From NCBI RefSeq assembly GCF_030013205.1, contig NZ_CP122648.1: 64,000 nt of DNA. One strand, given 5' to 3'. The stretch is from Escherichia coli. GTDB lineage: Bacteria; Pseudomonadota; Gammaproteobacteria; Enterobacterales; Enterobacteriaceae. Numbering within the stretch: the first letter of the stretch is position 1; the number at the start of each line of letters is the position of its first letter. Shown here piece by piece: positions 2 through 7,327 of the stretch. A program made the translations under genes and the position numbers. The notes under the pieces were generated by a model, which had not been told where the DNA came from, made no database searches, and saw nothing but the letters and a program-made list of their open reading frames with translations.

Positions 2-1288
2 AGCGCCACACTCAAGCGCGTTCTTAATCATCCCGAAGAGACACAAGCCCGACGCTTAATGACGCTGGAAGATATCGTCAGTGGTTATTCCAATGTGTTG
101 ATTTCCCTGGCAGATAGCCAGGGTAAAACGGTGTATCACTCCCCCGGTGCGCCGGATATCCGCGAGTTTACGCGTGACGCCATACCCGATAAAGACACGC
201 GGGGCGGCGAGGTGTATCTCCTTTCCGGCCCGACGATTATGATGCCGGGCCACGGTCACGGGCATATGGAACACAGCAACTGGCGGATGATTAACTTGCC
301 GGTTGGCCCGTTGGTGGACGGCAAACCGATTTATACGCTCTACATCGCGCTTTCGATCGATTTTCATCTTCATTACATAAATGATTTGATGAATAAACTT
401 ATTATGACCGCATCGATCATCAGCATCCTGATCGTCTTTATCGTGCTGTTGGCGGTACATAAAGGTCACGCACCGATCCGCAGCGTCAGCCGTCAAATCC
501 AGAACATTACCTCGAAAGATCTCGACGTTCGCCTTGACCCGCAGACCGTGCCGATTGAGCTGGAACAGCTGGTACTGTCGTTCAACCATATGATCGAGCG
601 TATTGAGGATGTCTTTACTCGCCAGTCCAATTTCTCAGCGGATATCGCTCACGAAATTCGTACACCAATTACGAATCTCATAACGCAAACCGAAATCGCC
701 CTCAGCCAGTCACGCAGCCAGAAGGAGCTGGAAGATGTGCTCTACTCTAATCTCGAAGAGCTGACGCGAATGGCGAAAATGGTCAGCGATATGCTGTTTC
801 TCGCCCAGGCCGATAACAACCAGCTAATCCCCGAAAAGAAAATGCTCAACCTGGCGGATGAAATCGGCAAAGTGTTCGATTTTTTCGAGGCGCTAGCGGA
901 AGATCGCGGCGTGGAACTGCGGTTTGTTGGTGACGAGTGTCAGGTTGCGGGCGATCCGCTGATGCTGCGTCGGGCGTTAAGCAACCTGCTTTCGAACGCC
1001 CTGCGTTATACGCCGCCCGGAGAGGCGATTGTAGTGCGCTGCCAGACGGTCGATCACCAGGTGCAAGTTTCCGTCGAAAACCCCGGTACGCCCATTGCGC
1101 CCGAGCACTTACCGCGATTGTTTGACCGTTTCTACCGCGTTGACCCCTCCCGCCAGCGAAAAGGCGAAGGTAGCGGTATTGGGCTGGCGATAGTGAAATC
1201 GATTGTTGTCGCGCATAAAGGCACGGTTGCAGTAACGTCAGATGCTCGGGGGACAAGGTTTGTGATTATGCTGCCGGAGAGAGAGTGA
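2..1288 (+). CDS. cusS: Copper/silver-responsive sensor histidine kinase, 3' portion (5' end lies outside the window)
   Basis: Frame open from position 2 with no upstream stop; translation shows a TM segment, a HAMP-like linker, an H-box (SADIAHEIRTP) and an ATPase domain (GSGIGLAIVKS); position next to nfrB matches the K-12 map. Confidence 0.85.
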   Translation, partial: SATLKRVLNHPEETQARRLMTLEDIVSGYSNVLISLADSQGKTVYHSPGAPDIREFTRDAIPDKDTRGGEVYLLSGPTIMMPGHGHGHMEHSNWRMINLPVGPLVDGKPIYTLYIALSIDFHLHYINDLMNKLIMTASIISILIVFIVLLAVHKGHAPIRSVSRQIQNITSKDLDVRLDPQTVPIELEQLVLSFNHMIERIEDVFTRQSNFSADIAHEIRTPITNLITQTEIALSQSRSQKELEDVLYSNLEELTRMAKMVSDMLFLAQADNNQLIPEKKMLNLADEIGKVFDFFEALAEDRGVELRFVGDECQVAGDPLMLRRALSNLLSNALRYTPPGEAIVVRCQTVDHQVQVSVENPGTPIAPEHLPRLFDRFYRVDPSRQRKGEGSGIGLAIVKSIVVAHKGTVAVTSDARGTRFVIMLPERE

Positions 1289-1644
1289 TTATTAAGTTCA
1301 AATTCAGGGCGTGGTGCATCACCTCCTGGTATTGTTGATCAACAAATTAGAGAAAAACTTATTAAACATATGAAATATCGAAGGCTTTTATTTTTCAAAG
1401 TTTCACGAGATGTTTGTATATGAAACTTAGTTAAATCTGTGTTTCTTCCAATTGTAGATCACAATGCCCTTTCTAAATTTTCATCGTTATAAACAAGCCA
1501 TCTATCATATAAAGCAATGAATAATTTAATCGCGATTAATCATCATTAATTGTTATATTATTCACTCAATCTATTTATCAAGTGAATTTGATAAATTCCT
1601 AATTTAAAATATCCACTATTGAGCCAGTATTTAACAACGTTAAG

Positions 1645-1672
1645 ATGTGCAATGTGCAATGTGCAATGTGCA
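1645..1672. repeat. Perfect tandem heptanucleotide repeat (ATGTGCA) x4
   Basis: Read directly: atgtgca repeated four times inside the AT-rich 750-bp leader upstream of vgrG. Confidence 0.9.
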
Positions 1673-2038
1673 GATCATGTTATCAGGGTGGAGCGGTAGC
1701 ATATATTTCTTATGCAATCATTCATTTTAATAATGTTAATTGGATTATTTATTGCTGTGAATAAAAATATATTATGAATATTGGTTTAACTTTGCGTTTT
1801 TGTTACTCGTTGTGATATGCGTACCTGTCCTGAATAACGCCAAGAAACAAGAGGTTGAGCTTGTGATTATTTTTTTGACTGAACAGACACCCGTTTCTGT
1901 AAAGTAATATTTAAACAAAATTCTCACATAACCATAGCATTTTCTGTTCCTTCCCTAATAACGTCTGAAGTCGTCCCGCTTATCACATTATCCGCAGTTG
2001 TACGGTACGGATCATTATTCATTTTACTGGAGGTTGCT

Positions 2039-3925
2039 ATGTCAACCGGATTACGTTTCACACTGGAAGTGGACGGCCTGCCGCCGGATGCTTTTGCGGT
2101 GGTTTCCTTTCATCTGAACCAGTCACTCTCTTCGCTCTTTTCCCTCGATCTCTCCCTGGTCAGCCAGCAGTTTCTCTCCCTTGAATTTGCGCAGGTGCTG
2201 GACAAAATGGCCTACCTGACGATATGGCAGGGCGATGAAGTACAGCGCCGGGTGAAAGGCGTGGTGACCTGGTTTGAACTCGGGGAGAACGACAAAAACC
2301 AGATGCTGTACAGCATGAAGGTGCACCCGCCGCTGTGGCGTGCCGGTCTGCGCCAGAACTTCCGTATCTTCCAGAACGAGGACATCAAAAGCATCCTCGG
2401 CACGATGTTGCAGGAAAACGGGGTGACCGAATGGAGTCCGCTGTTCAGCGAGCCGCATCCTTCCCGTGAGTTTTGTGTCCAGTACGGTGAGACTGATTAC
2501 GATTTCCTGTGCCGGATGGCGGCGGAGGAAGGCATCTTCTTTTATGAGGAGCATGCTTACAAAAGTACCGACCAGAGCCTGGTGCTGTGCGACACAGTCC
2601 GCCATCTGCCCGAATCTTTTGAAATCCCATGGAACCCGAACACCCGTACCGAGGTGAGCACCCTCTGCATCAGCCAGTTCCGCTACAGCGCACAAATCCG
2701 CCCTTCTTCCGTGGTGACCAAAGACTACACCTTTAAACGCCCCGGCTGGGCCGGACGTTTTGAACAGGAAGGCCAGCACCAGGACTACCAGCGCACGCAG
2801 TATGAAGTGTATGACTACCCCGGACGTTTCAAGGGTGCCCACGGGCAGAACTTTGCCCGCTGGCAGATGGACGGCTGGCGAAACAATGCAGAAACCGCGC
2901 GGGGAATGAGTCGTTCGCCGGAGATATGGCCGGGACGACGAATTGTGCTGACGGGGCATCCGCAGGCGAACCTGAACCGGGAATGGCAGGTGGTGGCAAG
3001 TGAACTGCACGGCGAACAGCCACAGGCGGTGCCAGGACGGCAGGGAGCGGGGACGGCGCTGGAGAACCATTTTGCGGTGATCCCGGCAGACAGAACATGG
3101 CGACCACAGCCGTTGCTGAAACCGCTGGTCGACGGCCCGCAGAGCGCTGTCGTGACAGGACCGGCAGGCGAGGAAATCTTCTGCGACGAACATGGTCGCG
3201 TGCGGGTGAAGTTCAACTGGGACCGTTATAACCCGGCAGACCAAGACAGTTCGTGCTGGATCCGTGTGGCACAGGCGTGGGCAGGCACCGGTTTTGGCCA
3301 CCTGGCGATACCACGTGTGGGTCAGGAAGTCATTGTGGACTTCCTCAACGGCGATCCGGACCAGCCGATCATTATGGGGCGCACCTACCACCAGGAAAAC
3401 CGCCCCCCCGGCAGCCTGCCGGGAACAAAGACGCAGATGACCATCCGCTCCAAAACGTACATGGGCAGCGGATTTAATGAGCTGAAGTTTGATGATGCGA
3501 CAGGGAGAGAACAGGTCTACATCCACGCGCAGAAGAACATGGATACCGAAGTGCTCAACGACCGTACCACCACCGTAAAACACGATCACCGCGAAACCGT
3601 AAAAAATGACCAGACGGTCACGATCCAGGAAGGTAACCGCCTTCTTACGGTGGAAAAAGGCCACAAGATCACCGGAGTACTGAAAGGGTCTTTATCTGAG
3701 GATGTCTTTCAGGACAGAGGCACGATTGCCGGTTCGGTGCATGTTGACGCTGTAAACAATGGTGGCGAAGGCGACGGTATACAGGCTTATACGGCGATTA
3801 AGGAAATTTTGCTGGCCGTGGAGGAAAGCAAAATTGCGCTGACGCCGGATGGCATTCAGCTACAGGTCGGGGAATCGACGGTACCGGATCACAGGTGTCA
3901 GTCACACCGACGGGATCCGGCTTAA
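2039..3925 (+). CDS. vgrG: VgrG-family type VI secretion spike protein, apparently C-terminally truncated
   Basis: 628-aa ORF with a GGAGG ribosome-binding site; N-terminus MSTGLRFTLEVDGLPPDAF typical of E. coli VgrG; gp27-like and gp5 OB-fold regions recognisable; ORF ends shortly after the start of the beta-helix repeat region and overlaps the Rhs ORF in another frame. Confidence 0.85.
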   Translation: MSTGLRFTLEVDGLPPDAFAVVSFHLNQSLSSLFSLDLSLVSQQFLSLEFAQVLDKMAYLTIWQGDEVQRRVKGVVTWFELGENDKNQMLYSMKVHPPLWRAGLRQNFRIFQNEDIKSILGTMLQENGVTEWSPLFSEPHPSREFCVQYGETDYDFLCRMAAEEGIFFYEEHAYKSTDQSLVLCDTVRHLPESFEIPWNPNTRTEVSTLCISQFRYSAQIRPSSVVTKDYTFKRPGWAGRFEQEGQHQDYQRTQYEVYDYPGRFKGAHGQNFARWQMDGWRNNAETARGMSRSPEIWPGRRIVLTGHPQANLNREWQVVASELHGEQPQAVPGRQGAGTALENHFAVIPADRTWRPQPLLKPLVDGPQSAVVTGPAGEEIFCDEHGRVRVKFNWDRYNPADQDSSCWIRVAQAWAGTGFGHLAIPRVGQEVIVDFLNGDPDQPIIMGRTYHQENRPPGSLPGTKTQMTIRSKTYMGSGFNELKFDDATGREQVYIHAQKNMDTEVLNDRTTTVKHDHRETVKNDQTVTIQEGNRLLTVEKGHKITGVLKGSLSEDVFQDRGTIAGSVHVDAVNNGGEGDGIQAYTAIKEILLAVEESKIALTPDGIQLQVGESTVPDHRCQSHRRDPA

Positions 3926-6900
3926 ACTGACGTACCACGCCAGCGGCTACCTGAAAGCCATTCACCGCACGGATAACGGCATACAGACGCTGGCGACCTA
4001 CGAACAGGATGCGCGGGGGCGGCTGACAGAAGCGGATGCGCGGCTGGACTACCACCTGTTTTATGAGTACGACGCTGCGGACCGGATCATCCGCTGGTCC
4101 GATAACGACCAGACGTGGAGCCGTTTCACCTACGATGAACAGGGCCGGTGCGTGAATGTCACCGGGGCGGAGGGCTATTACAACGCCACGCTGGACTATG
4201 GTGACGGCTGCACCACCGTGACGGACGGCAAGGGCATTCACCGTTATTACTATGATCCTGACGGCAATATTCTGCGGGAAGCAGCGCCGGACGGCAGCAC
4301 CACCATGTATGAATGGGATGAATTCCATCACCTGCTGGCCCGTCACTCCCCTGCCGGGCGGGTGGAGAAATTTGAATACAACGCCGCACACGGTCAGTTA
4401 AGCCGTTACACGGCGGCAGACGGCGCGGAGTGGCAGTACCGCTATGATGAGCGCGGCCTGCTCAGCAACATCACCGACCCTGCCGGGCAGACGTGGACAC
4501 AGCAGTGTGATGAACGCGGCCTGCCGGTAAGTCTGGTGTCGCCACAGGGCGAAGAGACCCGGCTGGCATACACCGCTCAGGGGCTGCTGTCGGGAATATT
4601 CCGCCAGGATGAACGGCGTCTGGGCATAGAGTACGACCACCACAACCGGCCGGAAACACTCACCGACGTGATGGGCCGTGAACACCACACCGAATACAGC
4701 GGTCACGACCTGCCGGTGAAGATGCGCGGCCCCGGCGGTCAGTCAGTGCGGTTACAGTGGCAGCAGCACCATAAACTGAGCGGCATTGAACGTGCTGGAA
4801 CCGGCGCGGAAGGATTCCGCTACGACCGCCACGGCAACCTGCTGGCCTGGACGGACGGCAACGGCGTTGTCTGGACAATGGAATACGGCCCGTTTGATTT
4901 GCCGGTGGCGCGAACGGACGGTGAAGGCCACCGCTGGCAGTACCGCTACGATAAAGACACGCTGCAACTGACAGAAGTCATTAACCCGCAGGGTGAGTCA
5001 TATCTTTATGTTCTGGATAACTGCGGCCGGGTGACGGAAGAGCATGACTGGGGCGGCGTGGTCTGGCGTTACCGCTATGACGCCGATGGCCTGTGTACCG
5101 CCAGGGTCAACGGCCTGGAGGAAACCATCCTCTACAGCCGGGACGCCGCAGGCCGCCTGGCAGAAGTCATCACGCCGGAAGGCAAAACGCAGTATGCGTA
5201 TGACAAATCCGGCAGGCTTACGGGTATCTTCAGCCCGGACGGCACATCACAGCGCACCGGCTATGACGAACGCGGGCGGGTGAATGTCACCACTCAGGGC
5301 CGACGGGCCATTGAATACCACCACCCCGATGAACACACCGTCATCCGCTGTATCCTGCCACCGGAAGATGAACGCGACAGACACCCCGGTGAATCCCTGC
5401 TGAAAACCACGTACCGCTACAACGCCGCCGGAGAACTGACGGAGGTTATCCTGCCGGGGGATGAGACGCTGACGTTCAGCCGTGATGAGGCAGGACGTGA
5501 AGTGCTCCGGCACAGTAACCGGGGTTTTGCCTGTGAACAGGGCTGGAATGCAGCCGGCCAGTCTGTCAGCCAGCGCGCCGGATTTTTCCCGGAAGAAGCC
5601 ACATGGGGCGGGCTGGTTCCGTCACTGGCGCGGGAATACCGTTATGACAGCGCGGGCAATGTGTCGGCTGTCACCAGCCGGGAAGATTACGGACGGGAAA
5701 CACGGCGGGAATACCGGCTGGACCGGAACGGCCAGGTCACGGCGGTGACAGCCTCAGGCACCGGGCTGGGCTATGGCGAAGGCGATGAGTCCTATGGCTA
5801 TGACAGCTGCGGCTACCTGAAGGCGCAGTCTGCGGGCTGGCACCGGATAAGTGAAGAGACTGACCAGTATGCCGGAGGCCACCGGCTGAAACAGGCCGGA
5901 AACACGCAGTATGACTATGACGCCGCAGGCCGGATGGTCAGCCGCACCAGACACCGTGACGGCTATCGCCCGGAAACAGAGCGGTTCCGGTGGGACAGCC
6001 GTGACCAGCTGACCGGGTATTGCAGCGCACAGGGTGAGCAGTGGGAATACCGCCACGACGCCAGCGGCAGACGAACAGAGAAACGCTGCGACCGGAAGAA
6101 AATCCGCTTCACGTATCTGTGGGACGGCGACAGTATTGCGGAAATCCGGGAATACCGCGATGATAAACTGTACAGCGTACGGCACCTGGTGTTTAACGGC
6201 TTTGAGCTGATAAGCCAGCAGTTCAGCCGGGTACGGCAGGCGCATCCGTCGGTGGCCCCGCAGTGGGTGACACGGACGAATCATGCGGTGAGCGACCTGA
6301 CGGGCCGTCCGCTGATGCTCTTTAACAGTGAAGGTAAAACCGTCTGGCGACCGGGACAGACCAGCCTGTGGGGGCTGGCACTCAGCCTGCCCGCAGACAC
6401 CGGCTACCCGGACCCGCGCGGGGAACTGGACCCGGAAGCCGACCCCGGCCTGCTGTATGCGGGACAGTGGCAGGATGCAGAATCCGGGCTGTGCTATAAC
6501 CGGTTCCGGTATTACGAGCCGGAAACCGGGATGTACCTGGTGAGTGATCCGCTGGGGTTGCTGGGGGGTGAGCAGACTTACCGGTATGTGCCAAATCCGT
6601 GTGGGTGGGTTGATCCGCTGGGATTGGCTGCAAGTTCTAAAATCAGCAGTTTGATGGACTATATTGGCGATGGTCGTCGTGTTAGTGGGCATACGGGTTT
6701 CCTGGATGGGGTTCGTTTATCACGTAGTCAAATAAACAATATTGCTAAAGAAATGGAGAAGCTAGGAATTAAAGTAATAAGGAAAGCAGATAAATATTTG
6801 CCACCAAATGCTAGGGCAGCTTTTGATTATGGCCTTCGCAATATTTATCTTAGGAAAAATGCCACCTTATATGAGGTGTATCATGAAGTGATTCATGCTA

Positions 6901-7079
6901 AGCAATTTGCGAAAATTGGACGAGAAGCATACGAAGCACTAGGACGTTTATCTAGGGAGGAACACGTTCTAAATGAAATATTAAAAAGTAAAAATTTATT
7001 CAATGAAGCGGAAATAGCTCATGCCATAAAATATGTTGAGGGATTGAGAGAAAAATTCATGATGGGACTAATAAATTGA
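3849..7079 (+). CDS. Rhs-family YD-repeat protein lacking the usual N-terminal region, with a C-terminal HExxH-containing tip
   Basis: 1076-aa ORF full of YD repeats (e.g. RYDxxGRL, YxYDxxG); core ends in the hallmark PNPCGWVDPLGL motif (~6590-6630), followed by a ~149-aa AT-rich tip containing HEVIH (6882-6896). The first ATG is inside the repeat region and no PAAR-like N-terminus is present, so this may be a fragment or pseudogene. Confidence 0.8.
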   Translation: MAFSYRSGNRRYRITGVSHTDGIRLKLTYHASGYLKAIHRTDNGIQTLATYEQDARGRLTEADARLDYHLFYEYDAADRIIRWSDNDQTWSRFTYDEQGRCVNVTGAEGYYNATLDYGDGCTTVTDGKGIHRYYYDPDGNILREAAPDGSTTMYEWDEFHHLLARHSPAGRVEKFEYNAAHGQLSRYTAADGAEWQYRYDERGLLSNITDPAGQTWTQQCDERGLPVSLVSPQGEETRLAYTAQGLLSGIFRQDERRLGIEYDHHNRPETLTDVMGREHHTEYSGHDLPVKMRGPGGQSVRLQWQQHHKLSGIERAGTGAEGFRYDRHGNLLAWTDGNGVVWTMEYGPFDLPVARTDGEGHRWQYRYDKDTLQLTEVINPQGESYLYVLDNCGRVTEEHDWGGVVWRYRYDADGLCTARVNGLEETILYSRDAAGRLAEVITPEGKTQYAYDKSGRLTGIFSPDGTSQRTGYDERGRVNVTTQGRRAIEYHHPDEHTVIRCILPPEDERDRHPGESLLKTTYRYNAAGELTEVILPGDETLTFSRDEAGREVLRHSNRGFACEQGWNAAGQSVSQRAGFFPEEATWGGLVPSLAREYRYDSAGNVSAVTSREDYGRETRREYRLDRNGQVTAVTASGTGLGYGEGDESYGYDSCGYLKAQSAGWHRISEETDQYAGGHRLKQAGNTQYDYDAAGRMVSRTRHRDGYRPETERFRWDSRDQLTGYCSAQGEQWEYRHDASGRRTEKRCDRKKIRFTYLWDGDSIAEIREYRDDKLYSVRHLVFNGFELISQQFSRVRQAHPSVAPQWVTRTNHAVSDLTGRPLMLFNSEGKTVWRPGQTSLWGLALSLPADTGYPDPRGELDPEADPGLLYAGQWQDAESGLCYNRFRYYEPETGMYLVSDPLGLLGGEQTYRYVPNPCGWVDPLGLAASSKISSLMDYIGDGRRVSGHTGFLDGVRLSRSQINNIAKEMEKLGIKVIRKADKYLPPNARAAFDYGLRNIYLRKNATLYEVYHEVIHAKQFAKIGREAYEALGRLSREEHVLNEILKSKNLFNEAEIAHAIKYVEGLREKFMMGLIN

Positions 7080-7327
7080 TAAAACATAACAAAATAACTA
7101 TCGAAATGGCTCTTGACTTGGCTCGGCGTGAGTTAGAGTTAAGGGAAATTCCTTATATTAAAAATAGTCTACATGCCAATTACAGCTATAAATCTATTAG
7201 TATTGGTTCTAAGCAAGGTTGGTTAATTTCAGCGAAATTAAAAGTCCCTGAAACTTTTGAGCCTGATATGATATTTATTGAGATATCTGACCCAGAAGGT
7301 TTTATTAATATTCCTGATGTATTATAA
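7076..7327 (+). CDS. Small ORF immediately downstream of the Rhs tip; candidate cognate immunity protein
   Basis: 83-aa ORF with a TTG start overlapping the Rhs stop (alternative ATG at 7106); AT-rich like the toxin tip; position is the classic rhs-immunity arrangement. Function inferred from context only. Confidence 0.45.
   Translation: MIKHNKITIEMALDLARRELELREIPYIKNSLHANYSYKSISIGSKQGWLISAKLKVPETFEPDMIFIEISDPEGFINIPDVL

Follow-up and report, generated by a model that had tools for sequence, protein, structure and literature searches.

The stretch of DNA analyzed here, 64,000 nucleotides in length and hereinafter called the window, is 100% identical to the chromosome of the pig isolate Escherichia coli ETEC4067 and carries, immediately after the 3′ part of the core gene cusS, an island comprising a vgrG gene and the remnant of an rhs gene (Table 1). 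This cusS-linked vgrG-rhs island corresponds to the vgrG1 (z0707)/RhsF locus of EHEC, also known as S-loop 44 (PMC7216683, PMC7618764). The gap between cusS and vgrG is indeed AT-rich, as the original prediction had it: the GC content of this leader (0.317, dropping to 0.265–0.32 in 200-nt windows) compares with 0.499 in the whole window, 0.532 in cusS, and 0.571 in vgrG. The prediction had also taken it to be acquired DNA, and the K-12-type genomes agree with this, in that they match the 750-bp leader only at rhsE and show nothing adjoining cusS. When the 750-bp leader was used as a query against 5,426 complete E. coli genomes, 3,762 returned some match and 2,370 a match to at least 80% of the query, with the presence of the leader at its conserved chromosomal site varying among strains. 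Neither strand has a predicted intrinsic terminator in the cusS-vgrG gap, so that read-through into the vgrG leader from cusRS, a copper-induced operon, is conceivable.

Table 1. Genes, leader modules, and candidate regulatory features at the cusS-vgrG junction (coordinates are those of the 64,000-nt window).
Feature	Coordinates	Strand	Remarks
cusS, 3′ part (upstream core gene)	59–1288	+	
AT-rich intergenic leader, cusS-vgrG	1289–2038	+	750 bp, GC 0.317
Left part of leader, locus-specific	1289–1545	+	Absent from the yncH paralog; mostly deleted in the O157 lineage
Leader module common to both vgrG islands	1546–2038	+	~78% identity to the yncH/RhsE-locus leader
Perfect inverted repeat TTAAC-AAC-GTTAA	1631–1643		Directly upstream of the tract; arms conserved in the paralog
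(ATGTGCA)x4 simple sequence repeat	1645–1672	+	Tandem Repeats Finder: period 7, 4.0 copies, 100% matches
GATC (Dam site)	1673–1676		Separates the tract from the −35; conserved in every leader version
Candidate sigma-70 promoter TTATCA-16-TATATT	1680–1707	+	Consensus match and conservation
Second conserved candidate promoter, extended −10-like TGTGATTAT	1862–1870	+	
Shine-Dalgarno GGAGG of vgrG	2029–2033	+	Conserved in the paralog leader alignment and in other genera
vgrG, 628 aa	2039–3925	+	Phage_GPD (7.6e-75), Phage_base_V, Gp5_trimer_C; 3′ end altered, deletion junction near 3883
Rhs remnant, N-terminus missing	3849–7079	+	RHS_repeat in 10 stretches; Tox-MPTase4 (3.4e-32); RefSeq pseudogene

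The island is decayed in this lineage. Relative to strain PK5, in which the arrangement is intact, the window has a deletion of the segment between vgrG nt 1845 and about nt 1665 of rhs, which takes out eagR along with about 555 rhs codons that specify the N-terminus of the Rhs protein. Consequently, among the components that typify accessory T6SS islands, the VgrG and the RHS core with its C-terminal toxin are retained, and EagR/DUF1795 and a full-length Rhs are missing. In a second genomic background in which the repeat described below varies, rhs is frameshifted or has an internal stop. The T6SS of ETEC4067 likewise shows decay, as judged from its aspV cluster only (NZ_CP122685.1, 4008572–4026114; another T6SS elsewhere in the genome is possible): here tagH has an internal stop, a truncated tssH is fused to a VasL remnant, and the divergent side has only a truncated Rhs, with no tssM, tssA, or vgrG annotated there. 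Past the Tox-MPTase4 metallopeptidase toxin of the window, a small ORF (~7118–7327), which may be an immunity gene, is followed by ISEc1.

Within the leader lies a tract of the heptamer ATGTGCA. Its four perfect tandem copies, first read off the sequence in the original prediction, were recovered by Tandem Repeats Finder as the sole perfect array of at least four copies in the 64-kb window. None of 200 simulated windows (first-order Markov) held a perfect array of at least four copies with a unit of 5–9 nt; the repeat is not a chance feature. A 14-mer of the repeat has no second occurrence in the window, and a literature search with the heptamer sequence matched only an unrelated primer. At the position of the tract, both the leader of a paralogous island and a divergent cusS-type allele carry an imperfect ATGGCAATGTGCA, and on this ground the perfect two-copy form would be derived and the forms with three to five copies (n=3–5) further derived.

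The paralogous island lies between yncH and rhsE, where K-12 has only the leader and a truncated rhsE left, and its leader aligns with that of the window from ~1546 on, at ~78% identity. The best-conserved 40-nt windows of this comparison, 1583–1642 (0.88–0.93) and 1663–1702 (0.95), flank the repeat. Over their first 1,532 nt (window 2039–3570 versus 3477–5008 of the yncH-island locus), the vgrG genes of the two islands share 97% identity; set against this figure, the values for the core windows (0.88–0.95) and for the whole leader (~78%) indicate that the leader as a whole evolves freely, whereas the core around the tract does not. The contrast between the vgrG genes and their leaders also suggests that either the coding regions have undergone gene conversion with each other or the leader has evolved much faster.

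Just downstream of the tract, TTATCA-16-TATATT stands out among the sigma-70-like candidates in that it alone keeps both its hexamers and its spacing unchanged across the six leader versions compared. It matches the consensus at 9/12 positions; since such matches are not enriched (three found versus 4.5 expected in shuffled sequences), its designation as a candidate promoter rests on conservation. Between the end of the tract and the −35 of this candidate downstream there are 7 nt; with a predicted start near 1714, the tract would occupy about −69 to −42, i.e., the most conserved part of the leader, where a change in length could matter. Being upstream of the candidate −35, it cannot alter the −35/−10 spacer through changes in its length, and the earlier supposition that the repeat alters promoter spacing finds no support in the only conserved candidate. 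What varies is the distance that separates the −35 from the upstream block, which is 21, 28, 35, and 42 bp for n=2, 3, 4, and 5, respectively; by this arithmetic the block would lie on the same helical face at n=2 and n=5, but not at n=3 or n=4. The inverted repeat on the far side of the tract (Table 1) could be a factor-binding site. A promoter predicted for the K-12 paralog by Shimada et al. (TTGACT-17-TATTAC) is destroyed in the window by a 9-nt indel. Inspection by eye of the surroundings of the tract gave no convincing match to sigma-54, CRP, or Fur sites and only one nearby GATC.

Several other structural variants of the leader came to light in these comparisons. In at least 20 complete genomes an IS1 is inserted at ~1497–1505, ~140 nt upstream of the repeat, its flanks overlapping by 9 bp in a manner suggestive of target duplication; this insertion could inactivate or activate vgrG transcription. 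The O157:H7-type leader is without ~1310–1470, leaving a gap of 593 nt instead of 736 nt between the genes, and a third cusS-type allele (strain 201609) is ~75% identical and has a paralog-like imperfect tract. Searches for homologs of the leader outside E. coli were negative: a conserved 19-mer had no matches in species-representative genomes, a blastn comparison of the leader with sequence upstream of 79 vgrG loci in other genera recovered nothing meaningful, and a motif, GCGGTAGC/TCAGGGTG, that appeared to be shared with other genera lacked significance (E about 3 in nhmmer; a pairwise score within the range of shuffled sequences).

Several other genera, namely Citrobacter, Yokenella, Atlantibacter, Lelliottia, Buttiauxella, Pseudocitrobacter, and Trabulsiella, have a strongly conserved non-coding block of their own, GGGAGATGGCGGATGCCGGAAACTTCGGCGGTAGCGTGCCTGAA, which is preceded by hcp with its terminator and lies ~95 nt upstream of vgrG. 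Across 16 loci the block shows 25 invariant columns and a hairpin (GCCGG/loop/UCGGC) that is kept mainly via G-U changes, with one compensatory pair in the outer helix. The block has no Rfam match, and within E. coli nhmmer aligns it best with the opening 60 nt of the vgrG coding sequence (E = 0.12), so that it may be either a relic of a vgrG 5′ end or a regulatory element. A regulatory hcp3-vgrG3 intergenic region has been described in EHEC (PMC13141884).

We then took stock of the copy number of the heptamer in the 5,426 complete E. coli genomes. It can be read from how long the match to the 750-bp query is (736 nt for n=2, 743 for n=3, 750 for n=4, and 757 for n=5), and a census was performed with short queries made of the 40-nt and 36-nt flanks with either six units or one unit between them, for which a span of 97, 104, or 111 nt against the 76+7n query denotes n=3, 4, or 5. 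About 2,640 genomes carry the leader allele by this census, of which about 2,609 (~99% of carriers) have n=2. Three copies are found in 12 genomes (W13-16, P15-25, ETEC4068, 4069, 4070, 4071, 4075, 6333, 6334, PI7, PSJ-14, and 24AR0357), four copies in four (ETEC4067, ETEC1701, K_EC180, and PK5), and five copies in two (ETEC1748 and ETEC4079); neither n=1 nor n≥6 occurs among the about 2,640 carriers. Reading the tract directly in 15 loci confirmed all of n=2, 3, 4, and 5, with the O157 leader having n=2. Exact matches in metagenome contigs number 78 for the n=2 pattern and none for the n≥3 pattern, and all 71 metagenome copies that we aligned have n=2 (their per-site polymorphism is confounded by structural variants, and the alignment was discarded for that purpose). 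Thus, the copy number is not invariant across isolates, but with ~99% of carriers and 78/78 metagenome contigs at n=2, the tract is not a species-wide mutable switch.

The expanded forms differ from each other in near-clonal backgrounds. Between the window (n=4) and ETEC1748 (n=5), 48.2 kb of alignment hold three SNPs and one gap of 7 nt; for ETEC4068 (n=3) the corresponding figures are 10 SNPs and, again, one gap of 7 nt over 50 kb. Across 6.6 kb of flanks, 0–3 mismatches are seen among strains with n=3, 4, and 5. The same is seen in the second genomic background, which is ~3% diverged in the cus flank, where PK5 (n=4) and PSJ-14 (n=3) differ by three SNPs in 6.6 kb. An IS200C insertion of ETEC1748 at window position ~48238, absent from the window, is the sole structural difference between these two strains in 50 kb besides the heptamer unit. 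These comparisons indicate that the tract mutates orders of magnitude faster than its surroundings, and always by whole units. Because n differs in near-identical strains with one 7-nt unit as the sole indel, slipped-strand mispairing, the kind of change that the original prediction had envisaged, is well supported as the probable process behind the changes in copy number.

Most of the expanded genomes come from one Belgian pig ETEC sequencing project, as might be the case if the differences in copy number were artefacts of assembly or base calling. We hold this to be extremely unlikely, since n=3 or n=4 was also obtained independently in genomes from France, Korea, Cuba, and Ecuador and in another human isolate. 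Moreover, the differences are exact multiples of 7 nt within otherwise identical 50-kb stretches, and a tract of 21–35 nt fits well inside a single read. The expanded genomes are of swine origin in 16 of 18 cases, an excess that could reflect selection rather than clonal sampling. As for the two backgrounds, their leaders are ~100% identical, which would fit independent expansion and exchange of the leader by recombination alike. Given the rhs pseudogene of the expanded lineages and the decay of the aspV T6SS cluster in ETEC4067, selection on the promoter has probably been relaxed in the very lineages that show the expansion.

What is known of the two islands points to a silent locus. The yncH-rhsE spacer of K-12, i.e., the paralogous leader, was recovered with the RpoD holoenzyme in genomic SELEX and flagged as H-NS-bound (PMC3946193). 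At the orthologous S-loop 44 of EHEC Sakai, the upstream transcription start was inactive in dRNA-seq, and the EHEC T6SS is repressed by H-NS (PMC7618764); VgrG1 and RhsF went undetected in EHEC even when the vgrG1 promoter had been swapped (PMC13141884). By analogy with these paralogous and orthologous loci, H-NS silencing of the leader in the window is plausible, and the leader displays both the AT-richness and the variable presence at a conserved site that are characteristic of H-NS-silenced acquired DNA. A search for TCGATAAATT-like high-affinity H-NS motifs in the leader found one 9/10 match (1588–1597), which is no more than expected by chance. The resemblance to the EHEC vgrG1-eagR-rhsF island (S-loop 44) extends to the site adjoining cusS and to an AT-rich orthologous leader, with 92% identity to O157 over the shared part, and that to H-NS-silenced vgrG-rhs islands to the silence of the ortholog and the H-NS-bound leader of the RhsE/vgrG2 paralog (PMC7216683, PMC7618764, PMC3946193). 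Unlike the EHEC island, that of the window lineage is now devoid of eagR and of the N-terminal part of Rhs, and its tract is expanded (O157 has n=2).

Could the tract then act after initiation, inside a long 5′ UTR? Were transcription to begin at a more distant upstream point or to run on from cusS, the length of the tract might change RNA structure, processing, or the upstream AUGs, resembling the 5′-UTR repeat of hmw1A. Each unit has an ATG, so that at n≥3 all three frames have one, and small ORFs begin in the tract (e.g., 1645–1764); the absence of a predicted terminator after cusS fits with such a transcript. Furthermore, post-transcriptional repression of vgrG1 is suspected by the EHEC authors (PMC13141884), and H. 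influenzae offers a precedent (PMC12721329). Yet, no Shine-Dalgarno sequence precedes any ATG of the tract, and the small ORFs have no Pfam match and differ in their C-termini between the paralogs, on which grounds we rejected them as genes. Rfam searches of the leader returned only sub-threshold matches (E 0.26–0.98), with nothing near the threshold, and the n=4 tract folds no better than shuffled sequence (z = −1.2), a weak fold that also offers no hairpin as a driver of slippage. We therefore regard a post-initiation role as very improbable.

The placement of the tract next to the candidate promoter brings up another reading, in which it would be a phase-variable contingency promoter whose tract length sets vgrG-rhs transcription via distance and helical phase. 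In this case each change in length would shift 1680–1707 relative to an operator, an H-NS nucleation site, or a UP-like block located upstream, in the manner of nadA, and n=2 and n=5 (21 bp apart, two helical turns) are predicted to be in phase, with n=3 and n=4 out of phase. Consistent with this, the copy number is hypervariable inside clones, and the tract lies between the conserved inverted repeat with its AT-rich block and the promoter candidate, within the most conserved 120 bp; it also has, like contingency loci, a perfect tandem repeat with a unit of 1–9 nt and whole-unit copy-number steps among close isolates. The paralogous leader binds both the RNA polymerase holoenzyme and H-NS in vitro (PMC3946193), and there are precedents in nadA (PMC2791445) and the 7-bp repeats of hmw1A (PMC8262952). 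All the same, we consider this reading unlikely. Evolved contingency loci retain long tracts species-wide, whereas the tract in E. coli stands at a non-mutable n=2 in ~99% of carriers, reaches a maximum of n=5, and thus is not a long mutable tract kept across the species; in the expanded lineages it is followed by an rhs pseudogene, and the T6SS cluster that we inspected is decayed. To our knowledge, phase variation in E. coli is almost entirely the province of invertible elements and Dam-dependent switches, and a true repeat-driven switch by which subpopulations stochastically turn the type VI spike/Rhs module on and off is, in our estimate, a rather remote prospect.

The two precedents are instructive in what they share with the present tract and in what they do not. 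In nadA of N. meningitidis, a phase-variable TAAA tract lies upstream of the −35 (PMC2791445); as in that system, we have a perfect tandem repeat between conserved flanks upstream of a (here candidate) core promoter, unit-step changes in copy number among related strains, and an expected effect on the spacing or phasing of distal elements. Unlike nadA, the E. coli tract has 2–5 units, is fixed at n=2 in ~99% of strains, and stands before an operon that is decayed in the variable lineage. With hmw1A/hmw2A of H. influenzae it shares a heptanucleotide unit in the 5′ region of a gene for a surface or secreted protein of cell-cell interaction (PMC8262952, PMC12721329); in both cases the heptanucleotide unit means that the tract cannot act as an in-frame coding repeat. 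The constructed hmw strains have 20–24 units, with repression graded upward with their number (PMC8262952), in contrast to at most five units of an unrelated sequence in E. coli. The remaining class for comparison is that of neutral intergenic repeats. VNTRs of this kind in E. coli serve strain typing by MLVA, and like them the tract is a short intergenic tandem repeat that differs in copy number among close isolates; unlike them, it is polymorphic in two genomic backgrounds only and lies inside a conserved, regulatory-looking block.

Taking these lines of evidence together, we favor as fairly probable the interpretation that the tract is an incidental microsatellite: a young, slippage-prone heptanucleotide repeat that lies in the putative regulatory core of a vgrG leader plausibly silenced by H-NS and is probably neutral in this lineage. 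Under this scenario, the imperfect ATGGCAATGTGCA retained in the paralog would have given rise to an ancestral two-copy (ATGTGCA)2, from which the expansion proceeded. Two copies would be stable, and from three copies on, 7-nt units would be both gained and lost by slipped-strand mispairing, with n=3, 4, and 5 among the near-clonal pig ETEC/O139:H1 strains as the outcome. Each unit would move the inverted repeat TTAAC-N3-GTTAA and the AT-rich block by 7 bp, about two-thirds of a helical turn, from the core promoter. Because the operon is defunct in this lineage, such variation is most likely selectively neutral, at most modulating an H-NS-silenced promoter.

The tract is notable as a polymorphic intergenic tandem repeat beside a candidate promoter in a species in which repeat-driven variation is uncommon. 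If its length does affect expression, it would represent an uncommon repeat-controlled promoter of E. coli, with stochastic variation tied to interbacterial weaponry. Irrespective of this, the most conserved 120 bp of the leader common to the two islands is the place to seek the promoter of EHEC vgrG1 and vgrG2. On the interpretation that we favor, the locus would allow strains of the pig ETEC/O139:H1 lineage to be typed on a fine scale and would offer a clean natural example of the birth of a microsatellite, stable at two copies and unstable from three.
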